Of a DNA stretch of 64,000 nucleotides, positions 2,757 through 39,745 are shown piece after piece. The translations under genes were made by a program, and so were the position numbers. The DNA comes from Escherichia coli (GTDB lineage Bacteria > Pseudomonadota > Gammaproteobacteria > Enterobacterales > Enterobacteriaceae). The DNA lies in assembly GCF_003018255.1 (NCBI RefSeq), contig NZ_CP027440.1. One strand, written 5' to 3'. The notes under the pieces were generated by a model that saw only the letters and a program-made list of their open reading frames with translations, had not been told where the DNA came from and did not search any database. The first letter of the stretch is position 1. Every line of letters starts with the position of its first letter.

Positions 2757-3770
2757 ATGAGGTGTGAACAAATGAAGGAAGAACAGCTTTTGTCTGATGC
2801 GATAGAGAATCTGCCAAAAGGATTCCATTTGCAGTATGAACATAGCGGTAGACATGGTAAGCACGATGCCTGGGGTAAGCTAACAGGGCCGGATGGTGAG
2901 TCAGTGATATTTGCTCTGGAAGTAAAATTTATCCACCGTAAAGAGTCACTGATGGCTGTTCGCGAACAAATGGTTCGCTTTCCTGCGGATTTTCCTGTGC
3001 TGCTGGTGTGTAACCGCCTGACGTCTGCACTGGCGGAATATTGCGCCGACAGCCAGATCAACTTTATCGATACGGCAGGGAATGCCCGTATCCAGGTTCC
3101 AGGCTTGTATGTGCGGATCGAAGGCCGCTATGAAAAGAAACCCGTTTCCGCCAGCAGTCGTTTTGCTGAAGGGGTGATGAAGCTTCTTTTTGTTTTGCTG
3201 TCTAGCCCAGAGACCCTGAACGAGACTTACCGCAGTCTGGCCGGAAAGGCAGGTATCTCTCTGGGAATGGTCAGCAAGGCTTTTGATTATCTCGAAGCGC
3301 AACGCTATTTCCGCAAATCGAAGAAGGGGCGTCGCTTAATCAATGAAGGCGAGTTAGAGGCTTTGTGGCTGAAAGATTATGCTACAGCTTTGCGCCCTAA
3401 GCTGGATTCGCTTTCTTTATCCGCGCCTGTTTCATGGGATGAGTTGACGCTTGCGTCCGGGGAATACTGGAGCGGCGAGATTGCGGCGGCAAAGCTGAGC
3501 GGAGGATACCTGATACCAGAAAATGGCGTGATTTTTACATCCCATCCGTTGTTACAAAGGCGAAAGGAACTGGGACTAAAACCTGTTCCGGGGGGGAAAC
3601 TACAGCTGATCGCCGGTTTTTGGGGGAACTTTGTACTGAATCACAAAGCCGAGGCGATGCTATGCGTGGCTGAACTGCTGGCAAGCGGGGATGACAGAAA
3701 CTGGGAAACAGCAAGGATAATCAATGACAAATATCTTCACCTTAATGAATCCGATCTCTTCAGCTACTGA
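2757..3770 (+). CDS. Hypothetical protein, first gene of two-gene cassette; possible DNA-binding or antitoxin-like partner of the nucleotidyltransferase
   Basis: 337-aa ORF (alternative start 2772). N-terminal segment PDGESVIFALEVKF resembles a PD-(D/E)xK motif; central segment GISLGMVSKAFDYLEAQRYFRK looks like a helix-turn-helix. Overlaps the downstream gene. Confidence 0.55.
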   Translation: MRCEQMKEEQLLSDAIENLPKGFHLQYEHSGRHGKHDAWGKLTGPDGESVIFALEVKFIHRKESLMAVREQMVRFPADFPVLLVCNRLTSALAEYCADSQINFIDTAGNARIQVPGLYVRIEGRYEKKPVSASSRFAEGVMKLLFVLLSSPETLNETYRSLAGKAGISLGMVSKAFDYLEAQRYFRKSKKGRRLINEGELEALWLKDYATALRPKLDSLSLSAPVSWDELTLASGEYWSGEIAAAKLSGGYLIPENGVIFTSHPLLQRRKELGLKPVPGGKLQLIAGFWGNFVLNHKAEAMLCVAELLASGDDRNWETARIINDKYLHLNESDLFSY

Positions 3771-4533
3771 AACGTTACTGAGTCAGATCAACCGTATTTG
3801 CACCGCTCAGGGGATCCCGTTTTTTATTGCAGGTGCAACGGCTCGTGAAATTCTGCTCCATCATATACACAGCAGAAGTATTGGTCGCCGAACCCGTGAT
3901 ATTGATATTGCCGTCTTTGTGGATAGCTGGCCGAGATTTGATGCGCTTAAAAATGCTTTCCTTGCTGAAGGGGCAGAAGTTGTCCAAGGTAATGCCCATC
4001 GTATGATTGTCAAAGGGATCGAGCTAGATATTATTCCTTTTGGTGGTGTTGCTGAAGGAAATCAAATTGCCTGGCCACCAGAACGTGAGATCATAATGGC
4101 TGTGGATGGATTTGCCGAAGTCTTTTCTCATACCGTAGTTGTGCGGCTGGATAACAGCGAAAATATTCCGTTCTGCTCCTTGCCAGGACTGGCTCTGTTA
4201 AAACTTTTTGCATGGCGTGATCGTGGGCATGGGAGTACTAAAGACGCGACCGATCTCTTTAAGATTATCTGTGAATATGGTGTTATCGAGAATGAACGCA
4301 TCTATGAATCGCCCGTCGAAGGGGAACGCCTGAACTGGGATCCCATACGTATGGGCGCTTTTCTGTTGGGAAGCGATATAGCGACAATTAGTGAACACTC
4401 ATCCTTGCAGGATTTACTCCATCTTGATAAAGAACGCCTGATCGATGTGATAGTACGACAACATGACGTGGGTGATGCTGGGATTGAGCAGATCATCAAT
4501 GATTTCTGGGATGGTATGGCAAGTGATGGTTGA
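3724..4533 (+). CDS. Nucleotidyltransferase-fold protein (Pol-beta superfamily; AbiEii/DUF1814-like or MNT-like)
   Basis: 269-aa ORF with the minimal NTase signature AGATAREILL...RRTRDIDIAVFVD (Gly-rich loop followed by DxD) and a downstream acidic motif GIELDIIPFG. Start codon uncertain; overlaps the upstream gene. Confidence 0.6.
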   Translation: MTNIFTLMNPISSATETLLSQINRICTAQGIPFFIAGATAREILLHHIHSRSIGRRTRDIDIAVFVDSWPRFDALKNAFLAEGAEVVQGNAHRMIVKGIELDIIPFGGVAEGNQIAWPPEREIIMAVDGFAEVFSHTVVVRLDNSENIPFCSLPGLALLKLFAWRDRGHGSTKDATDLFKIICEYGVIENERIYESPVEGERLNWDPIRMGAFLLGSDIATISEHSSLQDLLHLDKERLIDVIVRQHDVGDAGIEQIINDFWDGMASDG

Positions 4534-4581
4534 GGATGTAGTTTTAGATGAAATGTTCACAACAGAGTTTTGTTCATGAAT

Positions 4582-15443: not shown

Positions 15444-16034
15444 ATGCCTGAAAAACGAAAGCATCTCACTCGTCATGAAGTGGGACAGATATTGCTTGCA
15501 GCAGACAGAGGGATCCATTTTGAGCGCGATTATTGCCTCATTCAGATGTGTTTTTTACACGGCCTGCGGGTCAGTGAACTGTGCGGGATGCGCCTGTCTG
15601 ATATCGATCTGATCGGGCGCTCGGTGTATGTCCGGCGGTTGAAAAACAGTCTCTCCACGCAGCATCCGCTGTTTGATAATGAACTGCCTGCGCTGATGCG
15701 CTGGCTGGCGGTACGCAACCGCTGGCGGGATGCGGATTCAGACTGGTTGTTCCTGTCGCAGAAGGGTGGTGCGCTGTCGCGCCATCAGGTTAGATTGTTA
15801 CTCAAACGTTACGGAGAACTGGCAGGTGTCAGCATTTCCGCTTATCCGCATATGCTGAGACACGGTTGCGGTTACGCGCTGGCAGATCTGGGGCGCGACA
15901 CCCGTCTGATACAGGATTATCTGGGGCACCGGAACATCCGGCATACGGTGATTTATACGGCGACAAATACGCAGAGGTTTATGAATGTCTGGGGAAACGT
16001 GAGAGAAAACCACACAATTAGTGCCAGAATGTAA
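15444..16034 (+). CDS. FimB/FimE-family tyrosine recombinase (fimbrial phase-switch recombinase)
   Basis: 196 aa; HPHMLRHGCGYALADLGRDTRLIQDYLGHRNIRHTVIYTA is close to the FimE C-terminal catalytic region (R-H-R-Y motifs). Confidence 0.85.
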   Translation: MPEKRKHLTRHEVGQILLAADRGIHFERDYCLIQMCFLHGLRVSELCGMRLSDIDLIGRSVYVRRLKNSLSTQHPLFDNELPALMRWLAVRNRWRDADSDWLFLSQKGGALSRHQVRLLLKRYGELAGVSISAYPHMLRHGCGYALADLGRDTRLIQDYLGHRNIRHTVIYTATNTQRFMNVWGNVRENHTISARM

Positions 16035-22214: not shown

Positions 22215-23762
22215 ATGGAATATTCTATGTCGGATATTGTCGCCGGGAACAGGATTGCTGCTCAATATTTAAGAATGTCTACCGAGCATCAGAAATATTC
22301 GCCGGAGAACCAGCGGGAATATATCGAGAAGTATGCAAAAGAACACTGTATTACCATTAAATATACCTATGACGACGCTGGCCGAAGTGGGCTGAGCCTG
22401 GATAACAGGCCTGGCCTGCGTTCGCTGTTATATGATGTTGAAAACGGAATAATAAAAGTCTCGTTAATTCTTGTTTACGATGTCAGTCGGTTTGGTCGTT
22501 TTCAGGATATTGAAGAGGCTGCTCATTACTCGTGGCTACTGAAGCGTAATGGTGTGCGCATTATTTATTGCGCGGAGCCTTTCTCGGAAGAACAGACCGA
22601 ATTGTTTATGCTGGGATTATCTTACTCCCGCTATGGCGCCGCAACTTACAGTAAAAACCTTTCACAAAAAGTTTTTCTTGGCCAGGCAAACCTCGTTCGG
22701 CGGGGTTATTATCAAGGTGGTATGCCTGGCTATGGCATTCGGAGATTATTAATTGATGAACATACTAATCCGAAAGGCATGCTTCTGCCGGGGCAAAGGA
22801 AAAGCCTGCAAACTGACAGAGTAATATTGATCCCGGGGCCCGCGGAAGAGGTGGTAATAGTCAATAAAATCTATGACATGTTTATTGATGAGGGCAAGCC
22901 TGAGTTTGTTATTGCTTCAGAACTGAACCGGAAGAACATCCCCGCCGAGAATGGGCTCCAGTGGAGCCGATGTAAAATTCATCAGATACTGACCAATGAA
23001 AAATATATTGGCAATAATGTTTATAACAGAACCTCCGGACGATTGAAGACCCGAAGTGTCAGGAATCCTCAGGATCAGTGGATCAGATGTGACGGCGCGT
23101 GGGACCCTGTGGTATCAGTAGAGAAATTTGAGGCGGCTAAAAGGATTATTGAAGCCAGGGCCGTTCAGTACAGTGATGATGAACTGCTGGATAAACTACG
23201 CCATCTGCTGAAGCTTCGTGGCAGATTATCCGGGATTGTGATTGATGAAGAGGAACTGTTTCCATCGAGCAGCATTTTTCGTTCACGGTTTGGTGGGTTA
23301 GTCAGGGCTTACACCCTTATTGGTTATCACCCGCGCCATGATTACTCTTATCTTGAAATAAAAAAGCAGATTGCAGAATGCCATCTCACTTTCATGGATA
23401 ATTTGGTGCAGGATATATACCGATATGGCGGTTGGGCAGAGATGCATCAGGATGGTTCATTATATATTAATGATGAGTTTTTTGTTTCCGCTAATCTGGT
23501 TCGCTGCCAACGTTTGTCGTCAGGTAAGCTTCGTTGGAAGATAAAATTTAATGTATCCCATTATTGTGATGTCATGATCTTTCCACGGTTGGATAGCACA
23601 AATAACTCCGTGGTTGATTACTTTATGTTTCCGGCTATTGATGTGTTGTATAACGATTTAACGCTTCATGAGAACAATGGTTTTATCCTCGAACTATATC
23701 GATTTGATGATTTGTCATGTCTGGAAAATCTTGTAAAACGAACTGGTCTGGAGAGTAAATAA
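22215..23762 (+). CDS. Large serine recombinase (resolvase/invertase catalytic domain plus recombinase domain)
   Basis: N-terminal AAQYLRMSTEHQ...YDDAGRSGLSLDNRPGLRSLL...YDVSRFGR matches the serine-recombinase catalytic domain; 515 aa; starts 11 bp after the fimbrial operon. Confidence 0.8.
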   Translation: MEYSMSDIVAGNRIAAQYLRMSTEHQKYSPENQREYIEKYAKEHCITIKYTYDDAGRSGLSLDNRPGLRSLLYDVENGIIKVSLILVYDVSRFGRFQDIEEAAHYSWLLKRNGVRIIYCAEPFSEEQTELFMLGLSYSRYGAATYSKNLSQKVFLGQANLVRRGYYQGGMPGYGIRRLLIDEHTNPKGMLLPGQRKSLQTDRVILIPGPAEEVVIVNKIYDMFIDEGKPEFVIASELNRKNIPAENGLQWSRCKIHQILTNEKYIGNNVYNRTSGRLKTRSVRNPQDQWIRCDGAWDPVVSVEKFEAAKRIIEARAVQYSDDELLDKLRHLLKLRGRLSGIVIDEEELFPSSSIFRSRFGGLVRAYTLIGYHPRHDYSYLEIKKQIAECHLTFMDNLVQDIYRYGGWAEMHQDGSLYINDEFFVSANLVRCQRLSSGKLRWKIKFNVSHYCDVMIFPRLDSTNNSVVDYFMFPAIDVLYNDLTLHENNGFILELYRFDDLSCLENLVKRTGLESK

Positions 23763-24649
23763 TGAAATCTTTTGATGAACAGATAGAACTTGTCGATATC
23801 AGTGATATTTATATCGCAAATCCACGGAAAAGGAATAAATTCATTCATAATGAAATAAAAGAGAACATAAAAACCATTGGTCTGAAACGGCCTGTTAGCG
23901 TGCGCCCAGTGAATAATGAAAACTATAAATATGCCCTGATTTGTGGTCAGGGACGACTTGAAGCGTATATTGAGTATGGTGAAACGAAAATTCCTGCAAT
24001 CATCAAGCAGGTTGATGAAGAGACAGCGCACCTGATGAGCCTGGCTGAAAACATCGCAAGACGTAATCCCCGGGCGGCAGAGCTAATGGAAGATATCAGA
24101 AGAATGAAGACCAGTGGCCTGACCGATCGTGAAATAGGCTTGCGGCTTGGGTATAATTCGAGTTGGGTAAATGGGGTGATCACTCTGTTGTCATCCGGAG
24201 AGAAGCATCTTTTGCGGGCATTTGAGACTGGCGATATTCCCTTGTATCTTGCTGTGGAAATATCCCGGTCAGGAGATGAGGAAACTCAGGAACTGCTGAC
24301 GGTCGCCCTGAAAGAAGGACATATCAAGGGTGGGCAAATTAATAAGATCAGGCGCATACTTGAACAACGTAAGAAAGGCGATAAAGGTACGATTAGTACG
24401 GCTTTTTTTCCTGGGAAAAAACAGAAAAAACTGACCCCGGAAGAACTGGCTAATGTCTACCAGGAAAACATTAATGAGCAAAAAGCCATTCTGCTGAAAT
24501 CCACAATGGTTAAAGAGAAAATTCTGGCAGTAAAGCAAATATTTGGTTATTTACTTAAAGATAATGATTTTGTTACATTGCTGCACAGTAATAATATCCA
24601 CGATATTCCTTCTTTACTGGATGGCAGTGATGTATCGGGGGAGAAATAA
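23762..24649 (+). CDS. ParB/Srx-fold (ParB N-terminal-domain-like) protein 1
   Basis: Motifs ELVDISDIYIANPRKRN, GLKRPVSVRP, ICGQGRLEA (arginine-finger-like) and an HTH-like GLTDREIGLRLG; TAATG overlap with the recombinase stop. Confidence 0.65.
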   Translation: MKSFDEQIELVDISDIYIANPRKRNKFIHNEIKENIKTIGLKRPVSVRPVNNENYKYALICGQGRLEAYIEYGETKIPAIIKQVDEETAHLMSLAENIARRNPRAAELMEDIRRMKTSGLTDREIGLRLGYNSSWVNGVITLLSSGEKHLLRAFETGDIPLYLAVEISRSGDEETQELLTVALKEGHIKGGQINKIRRILEQRKKGDKGTISTAFFPGKKQKKLTPEELANVYQENINEQKAILLKSTMVKEKILAVKQIFGYLLKDNDFVTLLHSNNIHDIPSLLDGSDVSGEK

Positions 24650-24650
24650 G

Positions 24651-25541
24651 ATGATTTCACAATGTTTTGACTCCCGATTTTATACCTTTAAGGTGGAATC
24701 ACTGGTGTATGCCAGAACGCTGCCGGTTAATGTTAAATTCAGTACGAAGTACAAACAAATTAAAGCCTCTGTCGATGAAATTGGGTTAATTGAACCCATT
24801 GTGGTTTATATCAATGACGCCAATGATAAAGTCATTCTGGATGGACATCTTCGCGTTGAAGTTTTGAAAGAACTCGGAATAACTACTGCTCATTGTCTGA
24901 TATCCCCTGTGGAGGATACATATTCATATAACAAACGTGTTAGTCGCCTTACCATTGTGCAGGCCCAAAACATGCTGCTTAAAGCGGTTGAATCTGGCGT
25001 TTCAGTTGAAAAACTATGCGCCGTACTGGGTGTCACGCCAGATACGCTGATTGGTAAACTGAAAATTTCTGATGGCATTGCCCCTGAAGTCATGGCGTTA
25101 CTGGCAGAAAAAAATGTACCGCAGACCATTTTCTCTGTGTTGAAAAAACTAAAGTTCTATAAGCAGATAGAAATGGTTAACACCATGATCAGTATTAATA
25201 ATTTCACCCGCAAATTTGCGATGTCGATGCTGCATGCCGTTGCCCCTGAACATCTTGTAGCGCCTAAAAAAGATGCCAGCAGAGAAACAGATATCAGAAA
25301 AAATCTCGAAAGACTGGAAAAAGAAATGGCTTCCGTTCAGGTGGAAACGCAGCATCTTCAGGATGAATATGCTGAGAATAACCTTCGGCTGGTTATCATT
25401 AAAAATCACATTGAACGTCTGCTGGCGAACGGTCAGGTACTTAACTGGCTTTATGATAACCATCAGGAGTACCTTTCTGTGCTCAAGCAAATCTCGGGGC
25501 TGGATGATTTGAATAAGCTTGGCCAGACAATTGAGGAATGA
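24651..25541 (+). CDS. ParB/Srx-fold protein 2
   Basis: IEPIVVYINDANDKVILDGHLRVEVLKELG is ParB-box-like; start 2 bp after the previous stop. Confidence 0.6.
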   Translation: MISQCFDSRFYTFKVESLVYARTLPVNVKFSTKYKQIKASVDEIGLIEPIVVYINDANDKVILDGHLRVEVLKELGITTAHCLISPVEDTYSYNKRVSRLTIVQAQNMLLKAVESGVSVEKLCAVLGVTPDTLIGKLKISDGIAPEVMALLAEKNVPQTIFSVLKKLKFYKQIEMVNTMISINNFTRKFAMSMLHAVAPEHLVAPKKDASRETDIRKNLERLEKEMASVQVETQHLQDEYAENNLRLVIIKNHIERLLANGQVLNWLYDNHQEYLSVLKQISGLDDLNKLGQTIEE

Positions 25542-25740
25542 CACATTTTTAAAGCAAGGACTGCTGTTTTACAGATTGCCACTATGATGGGATGCACTGA
25601 GAGAGGAGGGCGTGCTGGTGGTTGACGTGATTCAACTGGTGCGGAAAATCTTGCTCAAAGGACGATGGCTTAAAATCAAGTTGCTGTTTCAAAAATGAAA
25701 AAGTAGATTTACATCCACTTTTCTTACTGAGGTAAAAATA

Positions 25741-26199
25741 GTGCATATAGATGCGGATTTCATAAGCTTGAGCACATTGGTGGCTAATCAACAAGCTGCA
25801 AAATGGGCGGGGGTTGCTGCTATTGCTGCCTGTTTGACGTTTGTTGTGACAACGATAGGTTTACTACTTGCTTGGCGGTCGTTGCATCAGTGGAAGCCTC
25901 AATACAAAGAAAACTCTAGACTTCTCCTAATCGAAGCTTTAATCGCATTTCAGAAATGTTTAATAACTATACCAAAAAATCTCGATAACGATCCCACCTA
26001 TCAAAGCCGAAAGGAATTTTTGAAGGCAAGTACTGAAGTTGAGCTAAGAGGACAAATATATCTTAAGCAACACAGCAACGAAAAATTAAAAGATGAATTA
26101 GCAAATCTCAGGAGTAAATGTGCAGAATTTGTTGGTGGTAAGGTGACTAAACCTGAACTGTCATTCATCTCAGCAATAATATTACTCATTGAAGTATAA
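25741..26199 (+). CDS. Hypothetical membrane-anchored protein (GTG start)
   Basis: One transmembrane segment AAIAACLTFVVTTIGLLLAW; AT-rich; possibly a fourth gene of the recombinase module. Confidence 0.35.
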   Translation: MHIDADFISLSTLVANQQAAKWAGVAAIAACLTFVVTTIGLLLAWRSLHQWKPQYKENSRLLLIEALIAFQKCLITIPKNLDNDPTYQSRKEFLKASTEVELRGQIYLKQHSNEKLKDELANLRSKCAEFVGGKVTKPELSFISAIILLIEV

Positions 26200-26222
26200 T
26201 AGATTCTGGGCTAACACCAATC

Positions 26223-26256
26223 GGTTACCCGGTTGGGATATCGCTTCCGGGTAACC
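26223..26256. repeat. Perfect 10-bp inverted repeat GGTTACCCGG-N14-CCGGGTAACC, followed by a second hairpin (about 26256-26283)
   Basis: Seen directly; lies at the boundary between the AT-rich recombinase module and the creatininase gene. Confidence 0.4.
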
Positions 26257-26301
26257 TGTGGAAAGGCAAAAGCCACTCCACAGGTTGCCCGAGCATATCG
26301 A

Positions 26302-29978: not shown

Positions 29979-30899
29979 TTATCTATTAGTAGCAACTCTA
30001 TCCGCAGCAGTACGGGTAACTTGATTTCCAACATCCCAGCCGTTTTCATCTGGGAGTGACATCCCATCCATTGGCATTAGGATAAAACCACCAATAGTTG
30101 GTCCAAATGACTCAGTAGTGTTAATTCCTGCATAGCTTGTTCTGATAATATTTTCATTCAAATTGGTCAAAAATGATATTCGAGTACCAAGTGGGTGCGC
30201 GGTTACCATTTGGATGTATCCACCAATAGTATTGACTGTTTCTTGGTTAATCCAATTATTCAAAGCAATAAACGGGGTACGCCACCAATTTATTGTGTTA
30301 GGAGTAAATTGTTGCCTGGTATTCTCTATAAACTCATTAAGTTCATGCAAGTTATCACCTAATAAAACAGGTCTGCCTGTTGATAAATTTTGAATATCTT
30401 CAATCTGGAGGTTGGCTGGGTGCTCAATAGAGTTATTGAGTTTTATAATTTTGTAGGTTTGTGTTCTCCAGCAAAAACCAAAAATTATCATCTGTATTCT
30501 TACTGCTTGGGGAAAGGATTGGCCGATATCAGACATATATTGCTCGGCAATATTTTTTGCTAATGAAGCTATTTCATTAAGACTTGGGAATGCTTCGGTC
30601 GATATTTGTTGTTCTGGATTATTGTTCGCAATCTCATGAAGTCTTGCTAATGATACTGCAAGCATTTCTTTGACATTAATTCCAATCATTGTACTTCCTG
30701 CAAATCCGAAGCCAAATTCGAATATTTTTTGCGGGTGAATTCGATAAACGTCCGAAGAGCGAATAACTGATACGGGGATTGAGAATAATTTCGGACAATG
30801 GTCAGTTAGTCTGCTATTTTGCTGAGTGATTCTTGAGTCGCTGACTGCCCAAATACTATCGCTTTCCTCTCTATTAAACCAACATGCAATTGCGGTCAT
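29979..30899 (-). CDS. Candidate N-terminal-nucleophile hydrolase with proteasome-beta/HslV-like N-terminal region and ~130-aa C-terminal extension
   Basis: From the internal start, M-TAIACWFNREESDSIWAVSDSRIT...FGFGFAGS echoes HslV TTIVSV...VIAGDGQAT...AGFAGG; AT-rich. Confidence 0.45.
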   Translation of the reverse strand: MTAIACWFNREESDSIWAVSDSRITQQNSRLTDHCPKLFSIPVSVIRSSDVYRIHPQKIFEFGFGFAGSTMIGINVKEMLAVSLARLHEIANNNPEQQISTEAFPSLNEIASLAKNIAEQYMSDIGQSFPQAVRIQMIIFGFCWRTQTYKIIKLNNSIEHPANLQIEDIQNLSTGRPVLLGDNLHELNEFIENTRQQFTPNTINWWRTPFIALNNWINQETVNTIGGYIQMVTAHPLGTRISFLTNLNENIIRTSYAGINTTESFGPTIGGFILMPMDGMSLPDENGWDVGNQVTRTAADRVATNR

Positions 30900-30947
30900 A
30901 AGGTTTTTCCAGTTATTTAACATTAATGCGAATAGCTTAGCATATTT

Positions 30948-39225: not shown

Positions 39226-39510
39226 TCACCAATTTACAGGTAAGCGCCGATGGGTATGAAACACGCGTAAAACCTGAATTATATTATTTCGTACTCGATA
39301 GGGAATGATATAAGGGTAATTATGAAGAATGAGCTCACGTGTTTCAGGTACCCTTCCTTCCCGGCCCATAGCGGGTTGCTCTTTGAGCAGTTGCGTAAGT
39401 CGCCAGACTTCGTTCACAAACCGTTCCGCAGCCTGCGGATCGTCTTCAGCAATATACCGGAACTCAGCTTCGAGATTGGCAATGGCTTTACGTAGCCACT
39501 TAATTTCCAT
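39226..39510 (-). CDS. ParE/RelE-family type II toxin
   Basis: 94 aa; ...ILHNYPYIIPYRVRNNIIQVLRVFH. Confidence 0.75.
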   Translation of the reverse strand: MEIKWLRKAIANLEAEFRYIAEDDPQAAERFVNEVWRLTQLLKEQPAMGREGRVPETRELILHNYPYIIPYRVRNNIIQVLRVFHTHRRLPVNW

Positions 39511-39745
39511 CTGGCTTTACTCCCAGACGTTGAAACAGCTTATCCACCTCATCTGAAGTGGCAAAATCACCGGCATCAGCTTCCTGAATGGCCTGCTCAA
39601 TCTCTGCAACTTGCCAGGCCTCCCGGGCAACATAATCTTCAATTGCCTGATTTGCCAGCCAGGACTTTGAGCGTCCGGTCGCTTTTGATAATGCTTCCAG
39701 TTGCGTGGAAAGATTGTTGTTTAAACGGACTGACATTACGCCCAT
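39500..39745 (-). CDS. Ribbon-helix-helix antitoxin (ParD/CopG-like)
   Basis: Start MGVMSVRLN with GAGG ribosome-binding site; overlaps the toxin start. Confidence 0.65.
   Translation of the reverse strand: MGVMSVRLNNNLSTQLEALSKATGRSKSWLANQAIEDYVAREAWQVAEIEQAIQEADAGDFATSDEVDKLFQRLGVKPDGN

Follow-up and report, generated by a model that had tools for sequence, protein, structure and literature searches.

What is a large serine recombinase, followed by two ParB-like proteins, doing immediately behind a fimbrial operon of Escherichia coli? The question is raised by a stretch of 64,000 nucleotides (nt) from contig NZ_CP027440.1 (assembly GCF_003018255.1), hereafter the window, in which these three genes, the trio, lie side by side on one strand. 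Working from the sequence alone, an initial annotation had offered three answers: a small integrative element borne by the serine recombinase, a DNA-rearrangement module acting on the adjacent adhesin genes, or a system based on ParB proteins that hydrolyze cytidine triphosphate (CTP). We find that the trio is an operon of fixed gene order and wide distribution, and that it travels as the cargo of integrative and conjugative elements (ICEs), of plasmids, of a Tn7-like transposon and of tyrosine-integrase islands. It does not belong to the fimbrial operon, nor does it appear to integrate by itself. As to its function, the explanation that we favour, with a probability of roughly 0.4, is that the trio is a previously undescribed DNA-targeting conflict module, whose predicted role is defence against phages or plasmids, or exclusion between mobile elements.

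A three-gene operon and its carriers

The first gene of the trio encodes an atypical large serine recombinase of 515 amino acids (22215..23762, + strand; Pfam Resolvase and Recombinase), for which the Prokaryotic Genome Annotation Pipeline (PGAP) places the start at the ATG at 22227, giving 511 residues. Its residues 318-515 (23166..23759, + strand) form a C-terminal region that is specific to the family. The second gene, ParB1 (295 residues; 23762..24649, + strand), has a ParB_N domain, a helix-turn-helix (HTH) and a RepB-type C-terminal domain according to Pfam. The third, ParB2 (296 residues; 24651..25541, + strand), is a divergent paralogue of ParB1 by Pfam and HHalign. Only 11 nt separate the fimbrial stop codon (22203) from the ATG of the recombinase (22215), and the stop codon of the recombinase overlaps the start of ParB1 as TAATG, both as initially described; the ParB1 stop and the ParB2 ATG, however, have one nucleotide between them rather than two. 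The block is also AT-rich, as had been noted, with a GC content of 0.40-0.42 over 23-26 kb compared with 0.55-0.62 in both flanks.

A species survey, in which one genome per species was scanned and 80 loci were kept for gene-order counts, finds a relative in at least 578 species. At every one of the 80 loci the recombinase is followed by ParB1, and at 77 of them ParB2 comes next; the three loci without ParB2 are contig ends or truncations. The expectation that the three genes travel together is thus decisively borne out. Their hosts are alpha-, beta-, gamma- and deltaproteobacteria, Acidobacteria and a few other phyla. On plasmids, tblastn finds full-length matches to the recombinase (~46% identity) adjacent to matches to ParB2 (34-40% identity) in Agrobacterium (including pAtC58), Sphingobium, Piscinibacter, Pseudomonas aeruginosa, Paraburkholderia, Burkholderia, Rhizobium and others, and the annotated plasmid loci have the same gene order with overlapping genes. 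Within E. coli, a paralogous trio (recombinase identity 51%) is present in 692 of 5426 complete genomes (~13%); all 714 places at which it occurs are chromosomal, and none is on a plasmid.

The carriers of the trio are of several kinds. BL21 and other B strains contain a minimal ssrA island made up of a P4-type tyrosine integrase, the paralogous trio and IS1, in which the trio is the sole cargo (NZ_CP010816.1 2591689-2597632). In other E. coli and in Pectobacterium, the trio lies in an integrase-bounded island together with AbiLi/AbiLii, a TIGR04141/DUF6119 gene and an Hxs radical S-adenosylmethionine (SAM) cluster. In Piscinibacter it follows TniQ in a Tn7-like element. Among 50,697 phage records a single one holds the trio, namely MT837206.1, an unverified contig of 7458 bp from a human faecal virome that also carries a metallophosphoesterase-like gene and that could be a transduced fragment, a contamination or a small element. 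The other phage matches are ordinary integrases, aligned only over residues 15-316 of the recombinase. Given this one unverified record, a phage origin of the trio was rejected.

In E. coli, a further carrier is the ICE to which the window belongs. The chromosome of E. coli JNE23-011 matches the region at 100% identity, and there it lies within an ICE of the PFGI-1 class whose annotated genes include a MobH relaxase, TraG, TIGR037xx ICE proteins, TraC, TraD and PilL2. On one side of the trio slot stands a chaperone-usher fimbrial operon and on the other a creatininase/permease pair, an arrangement that is found, whole or in part, in 7 of the 5426 complete E. coli genomes. In a sister ICE in strain Res13-Lact-ER01-35, which is very close to that of the window (synonymous divergence, dS, of 0.11-0.16 in the fimbrial genes), a SAM-dependent methyltransferase fills the trio slot: homology with the window ends at the fimbrial stop codon and resumes within the 3' end of the creatininase gene, and the slot holds different cargo rather than being an empty site. 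Enterobacter ICEs of this family also have the trio (85-92% amino acid identity) directly after the fimbrial operon, with other cargo downstream. When the E. coli and Enterobacter ICEs are compared, the trio genes have diverged by a dS of ~0.9-2.2 and the fimbrial genes by 0.7-1.0, and the ratio of nonsynonymous to synonymous divergence (dN/dS) is 0.02-0.05 across all three trio genes (0.02-0.03 for ParB1 and ~0.04 for ParB2). Since its dS is like that of the fimbrial genes and its dN/dS is low, we conclude that the trio has long resided in this ICE lineage under selection, and that in one branch it has given way to other cargo only recently.

These comparisons also define how far the unit extends. 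The initial annotation had added to it a small membrane protein and had placed its end near an inverted repeat. A membrane open reading frame (ORF) of 152 residues does lie at 25741-26199, and the perfect 10-bp inverted repeat GGTTACCCGG-N14-CCGGGTAACC is confirmed at 26223-26256, where it is a hairpin that separates the membrane ORF from the convergent creatininase gene. Neither of the two, however, occurs at any of the other trio loci. E. coli C10 has the same trio without the membrane ORF or the repeat, and has a PaiB pseudogene and a different hairpin instead; three further strains resemble C10 in having the same trio and then a PaiB pseudogene. Because the comparisons with C10-type strains, with Res13-Lact-ER01-35 and with the Enterobacter ICEs delimit the trio, we conclude that the conserved unit consists of the three genes only, and that the membrane ORF and the repeat are a neighbouring, exchangeable piece. 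The repeat was rejected as an element end as well, since the hairpin is missing wherever the membrane ORF is missing.

It is important to ask whether the trio serves the fimbriae beside which it stands. In both the E. coli and the Enterobacter ICEs it shares a strand with the fimbrial operon, starts 11-100 bp beyond it and has co-diverged with it (dS ~1), all of which would suit a DNA-rearrangement switch on the adjacent fimbrial or adhesin genes. Such a switch is nevertheless highly improbable: none of the ~90 other trio loci has fimbrial neighbours, the sister ICE retains the operon though it lacks the trio, the adhesin genes are not enclosed by inverted repeats in the region scanned, and the operon has a FimB/E-like tyrosine DNA invertase of its own (196 residues, 15444-16034). 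The trio is thus the occupant of an ICE cargo slot and not, as had been proposed, a functional appendage of the fimbrial genes. Between the invertase and the major subunit gene we observe a gap of ~370 bp (to 16401), which suggests a promoter of the phase-variable fimS type. If this promoter is real, the trio, so close behind the operon, could be expressed phase-variably.

A second possibility is that the recombinase is an integrase or transposase that moves a cassette of ~3.5-4.3 kb, with the ParB proteins as targeting or directionality factors. Between species, homology covers the trio (and a small upstream gene where this is present) plus 0.1-0.3 kb downstream, and then ends. In the window, the left edge is 11 nt before the recombinase start codon; the right edge is the ParB2 stop codon in most comparisons and ~55 bp past it for the closest relatives. 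Because homology ends at the edges of the module across unrelated contexts, the cassette appears, from these alignments, to move as a discrete unit. Mobility by its own recombinase would explain this pattern, and it is also in keeping with the intact catalytic residues of the enzyme, with the two copies found in some genomes and with small contigs that hold the trio alone. At the edges themselves, however, there are no att-like or terminal repeats (around 22.2 kb and 25.5-26.3 kb in the window), nor do the between-species comparisons reveal terminal inverted or direct repeats or att-like half-sites. In genomes with two copies, the paired trios are only 66-88% identical, and recent transposition was rejected on that ground. 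Moreover, the recombinase is missing the zinc-ribbon/coiled-coil domain with which large serine recombinases read att sites and set directionality; the BL21 trio is carried by a tyrosine integrase of its island and that of Piscinibacter by Tn7 machinery; and phages, in which such integrases are common, lack the trio but for the one unverified contig. We therefore consider self-mobilization quite improbable, and the small integrative element of the initial annotation finds no support.

Some sequence features recur near the edges in particular groups. The motif CAGAnTGyCACTAT downstream of ParB2 is common to the closest relatives only. In one alphaproteobacterial subclade only (L046, L050, L051, L057, L062, L064, L067, L075, L099), the shared module ends on the right, ~180 bp after ParB2, with a conserved GC-rich hairpin, GGCGTG(T/C)CGG-N-CCGGCACGCC. 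This hairpin is probably the operon terminator, and may follow a small extra ORF. On the other side, a small divergently transcribed gene of ~120-220 residues stands directly upstream in 48 of 90 trio loci, mainly in alphaproteobacteria and in some Pseudomonas and Paraburkholderia, and in no enterobacterial copies. Its conserved core reads 'RWTGASERTVKNW..G..GPSGEHL' (for example L005 7487-7894 and L061 7442-7825), longer forms have an extra DeoR-like C-terminal winged helix, and neither Pfam nor NCBIfam has a match for it; an HTH-like motif makes it a possible HTH regulator.

Two further observations concern relatives and companions of the trio. Megaplasmids of Sinorhizobium meliloti contain one to four strong ParB2-like genes (hidden Markov model score 397; for example Rm41 pSymA, L006 5962-6831) with no recombinase or ParB1 within 6 kb, and some of these copies are split into several BLAST pieces, which suggests pseudogenes. 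Downstream of the trio, on the other strand, argW-type islands of E. coli, and Pectobacterium as well, encode a TIGR04141/DUF6119 'sporadically distributed' protein, HxsD and two radical-SAM proteins; the TIGR04141/DUF6119-Hxs synteny recurs across genera (L011 13836-18859; L113 13332-18374).

Domain architecture of the recombinase and the ParB proteins

The recombinase retains all of its catalytic residues. Pfam assigns it a Resolvase domain (4.5e-20) and the Recombinase domain PF07508 (3.5e-23, residues 211-315), and the catalytic motif YxRMST(E/D)HQ with Ser22, together with R20, D89, R92 and R95, is invariant in 59-90 homologues. Beyond these domains, Pfam finds no match to the zinc-ribbon domain PF13408, and there is no coiled-coil domain; the C-terminal region has no cysteine cluster, C431 being its only conserved cysteine. 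Residues 318-515 are conserved family-wide, and in the window protein they have no Pfam match. The region is laid out as a helical unit like the homing-endonuclease-associated repeat (~318-375), a long helix, and a beta-rich PD-(D/E)xK-like domain (~378-507). In 26 of 59 homologues the helical unit gives a weak match to that repeat (PF18780) at ~residues 318-375. When a profile of the C-terminal region is compared with 1.84 billion representative proteins, the complete domain is found only at the C-terminus of proteins of ~510-535 residues, and the first 57 profile positions also match proteins built of arrays of the PF18780 repeat.

A sequence profile search of the PDB with the C-terminal domain gave no matches; its assignment comes from structure prediction. 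The AlphaFold model of the C-terminal region alone has a mean local confidence (pLDDT) of 88 and a predicted template-modelling score (pTM) of 0.74. Using Foldseek, the beta-rich part is matched to I-Ssp6803I (E 8e-4, probability 1.0), and the next matches are the SPARDA nuclease domain, MepB, Hjc, PvuII and Eco15I-N. The C-terminal domain is thus predicted to have a PD-(D/E)xK nuclease-like fold with an alpha-beta-beta-beta-alpha-beta core. Within it, E421, D452 (in the 'PD' pair), R458 and D468 are invariant or near-invariant, and no lysine stands at the expected (D/E)xK position. As modelled, the recombinase would have swapped the zinc-ribbon/coiled-coil domain for a predicted nuclease-fold domain.

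Of the two ParB proteins, ParB1 matches both ParB_N (2.2e-11) and RepB (PF07506, 7.2e-13) in Pfam. Its residues 20-161 align with Spo0J of Thermus thermophilus (1vz0), and the similarity to Spo0J, Noc and KorB takes in its N-terminal domain and HTH. Among 87 homologues, the motifs NPRxRN, GLK(R/K)PITV, CG(Q/E)GRLEA and SLVENxARR are invariant or near-invariant. The third of these stands at the position of the canonical GERRxRA motif, with glutamine in 75 of the 87 and glutamate in the other 12; the nucleotide-pocket arginine and asparagine are retained, and the catalytic glutamate is replaced by glutamine in most members. ParB2 matches RepB (PF07506, 1.5e-23) and, weakly, ParB_N (2e-3), and its conserved motifs among 81 homologues are LLDGHxR (LDGH(L/M)R at the GERR position) and YNKRxNR. 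A BLAST comparison finds no cross-matches between ParB1 and ParB2. When their profiles are aligned by HHalign, however, the probability is 97%, over ~254 collinear columns with 14% identity. Judged by these alignments, the two are distinct orthologous lineages and distant paralogues of one another.

In canonical ParB proteins, the arginines and the glutamate of GERR are needed for CTP binding and hydrolysis. Because GERR is replaced in both proteins, we doubt that either runs the canonical CTPase cycle; they may still bind a nucleotide and hydrolyze it slowly or not at all. Of the three answers offered at the outset, a ParB-based system is the one that fares best, although its canonical CTPase chemistry is the part that has become doubtful.

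Possible roles in maintenance or conflict, and the genomic neighbourhood

A ParB-based system may act in more than one way. Resolvase-plus-partition pairings are known on plasmids, RK2 par being an example, and the trio could similarly be a maintenance or stability module that keeps its carrier element (ICE, island or plasmid) in the lineage. The recombinase would then resolve multimers or cointegrates, and the ParB pair would be a ParA-less tethering or partition factor, or a regulator similar to KorB or VirB. Consistent with this role, the N-terminal domain and HTH of ParB1 are closest to those of partition-type ParB, Noc and KorB, both ParB proteins end in the RepB domain known from repABC partition, and many copies are on large alphaproteobacterial plasmids. 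Still, no ParA adjoins the trio in the window, as the initial annotation had correctly observed, and across ~90 related loci there is no recurring ParA-like neighbour family or other NTPase partner. No conserved parS-like palindrome is present in 77 modules or within 400 bp on either side of them. All of the E. coli copies are chromosomal; the Tn7-like cargo and the chromosomal defence-island copies sit where the partition of a replicon is irrelevant; and the C-terminal domain of the recombinase is predicted to be nuclease-like, not resolvase-like. Thus a classical partition locus was rejected, given the missing ParA, the missing palindrome and the missing E. coli plasmid copies, and a maintenance role in the wider sense is unlikely.

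The neighbours of the trio may point in another direction. At various loci these include AbiLi/AbiLii, AbiEii with Fic (in pAtC58), and an Abi family protein with HigA; type I HsdR, a homologue of the Zorya-associated ZacC (1142 bits) and a GajB-like helicase; DISARM DrmD (1008 bits, above the curated cut-off) with a DrmB-like protein; and TIR and patatin genes. Other neighbours are integrases, transposases, a terminase, a PrimPol-helicase, a RecB-like nuclease, housekeeping genes and many unmatched proteins. In the ICE of the window, the other AT-rich cargo regions contain Menshen NsnABC, a type II restriction-modification system and AbiEi/AbiEii. In this small sample, taken without a genome-wide background, the neighbourhood pattern is typical of defence-island cargo.

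The conflict-module explanation starts from what the loci themselves display: which genes are present and how strictly they are linked, the purifying selection on them, their status as cargo, their domain architecture and their neighbourhood. The near absence of the trio from phage records and the chromosomal location of all its E. coli copies also favour it. To these the explanation adds a heterodimer, DNA loading, a target and an outcome, which we infer. Under this explanation, ParB1 and ParB2 would pair through their RepB-type C-terminal domains, presumably as a heterodimer, and the pair would bind or load onto DNA through its HTH and N-terminal domains, the latter gated by a nucleoside triphosphate. 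The pair would then recruit or license the recombinase, which would break or rearrange the bound DNA by means of its invariant Ser22 active site. The PD-(D/E)xK-like domain, in place of the zinc ribbon, might provide recognition of DNA or of junctions, or else a second nuclease activity. A more specific proposal, which we advance only tentatively and with less confidence than the general one, is that the trio represents a new class of immune or exclusion system, in which a heterodimeric ParB-like clamp would recognize foreign or aberrant DNA and guide to it a serine recombinase with a nuclease-fold targeting domain, which would break or scramble that DNA.

Several points weigh against reading the trio as a conflict module. 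With no GERR motif in ParB1 or ParB2, clamp or CTPase behaviour is uncertain; the nuclease-like domain is without an obvious (D/E)xK lysine; and no cis site has been located that indicates the DNA acted on. In a random sample, 18 of the 27 nearest neighbours of at least 200 residues have no NCBIfam match, and some sampled neighbours are housekeeping genes, such as MetG and a histidine kinase. The cargo regions of mobile elements, moreover, hold defence genes among many other functions. None of the models in PADLOC-DB v2.0.0, for known or candidate systems, matches the recombinase, ParB1 or ParB2 as such, the sole hit being a partial N-terminal match of MTase_II on ParB2. The main objection is that E. 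coli B/BL21 has an intact paralogous trio. These strains are classical permissive hosts of the T phages and accept common plasmids; a trio that defends would therefore have to be silent in them, or be directed at a narrower or different target.

The remaining cargo of the window may be described briefly. An AT-rich block at 53211-59419 (32-35% GC) consists of a complete Menshen system, with NsnA at 53211-55157, NsnB at 55154-56305 and NsnC at 56286-57209, and of a type II restriction-modification pair on the opposite strand to the Menshen genes, with the restriction endonuclease at 57271-58344 and the C5-methyltransferase at 58280-59419. From the annotation of the JNE23-011 ICE, an AbiEi/AbiEii pair falls at ~2773-4534 of the window and a RelE/ParE-CopG toxin-antitoxin pair at ~39226-39745. 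A hypothetical gene of 413 residues lies at ~37.9-39.2 kb, within a stretch of 33% GC. An ORF of 314 residues (29979-30923, - strand; 38% GC), flanked by two small HTH genes and the ICE TraC ATPase, has no match in NCBIfam or PADLOC. Its slot is occupied by a RES-domain NAD+ phosphorylase in E. coli C10, by a PLD-domain protein in Enterobacter ludwigii, and by an HNH and AAA_21 pair in E. hormaechei. Because the contents of this slot differ among these three, we conclude that it is a second cargo-exchange hotspot of this ICE family.

Relation to known systems

It is useful to compare the trio with the systems whose parts it resembles. The known large serine recombinases comprise the phiC31, Bxb1, A118 and SPbeta SprA integrases, CcrA/B and TnpX. 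With these enzymes the trio recombinase has in common the Resolvase catalytic domain and PF07508. It differs from them in having the homing-endonuclease-repeat-like unit and the PD-(D/E)xK-like domain instead of a zinc ribbon and coiled coil, in being without identifiable att sites, and in being always co-operonic with two ParB paralogues. The trio is, furthermore, essentially absent from phages, and its carriers have integrases of their own. The second comparison is with the CTP-gated clamps of ParABS, Noc, KorB and the RepB of repABC. ParB1 retains the NPR of Box I, the Gly-x-x-Arg of Box II and the EN-x-x-R of Box III, and both trio ParB proteins have the RepB C-terminal domain. In contrast to the clamp systems, however, the trio has neither ParA nor a conserved parS, consists of two obligate paralogues tied to a recombinase, and has GERRxRA changed to CG(Q/E)GRLEA in ParB1 and to DGHxR in ParB2. 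As for I-Ssp6803I and Hjc, the trio domain is without sequence similarity to them, is fused to a recombinase, and is without a clear (D/E)xK lysine.

Among defence systems, Wadjet (JetABC with JetD) and Lamassu would share a common logic with the trio as we predict it, that is, a module for loading onto or sensing DNA coupled to an enzyme that breaks DNA. Wadjet, Lamassu, GmrSD/BrxU, DndB, Osa and Menshen NsnA are likewise cargo of mobile elements or defence islands, but none has a sequence relationship to the trio. We know of no serine recombinase described previously as a defence effector. The ParB/Srx fold recurs in conflict systems (PMC10853773, PMC12839542, PMC12065111). In the openly available portions of the literature on defence discovery and on ParB-superfamily conflict proteins, which exclude subscription journals, no recombinase-ParB-ParB cassette is described. 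NCBIfam gives the three proteins only generic matches at the domain level, and no entry of PADLOC, NCBIfam or Pfam puts a name to the system or to the C-terminal domain of the recombinase. Thus, we conclude that the trio is new as a system: its components come from known superfamilies, but neither their combination nor the C-terminal domain of the recombinase matches any described system that we found. At least one defence-discovery pipeline states that it drops candidates with integrases or recombinases as being mobile-element-like (10.1101/2025.01.08.631966), which could explain why the cassette has been overlooked.

If the trio is indeed one system, then it adds a widespread new module to the catalogue of mobile-element cargo, and it joins serine recombination to ParB-type DNA loading, two well-studied machineries whose union is expected from neither field. 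The replacement of a zinc ribbon by a predicted nuclease-fold domain would be relevant to the evolution of recombinases and to their engineering. The copy in BL21 makes knockouts and expression tests immediately feasible in a laboratory strain. Should the tentative proposal of a new immune or exclusion class prove true, the trio would be the first instance of serine-recombinase chemistry serving as a defence effector, and it would be present in ~13% of E. coli, BL21 included, and in hundreds of other species.

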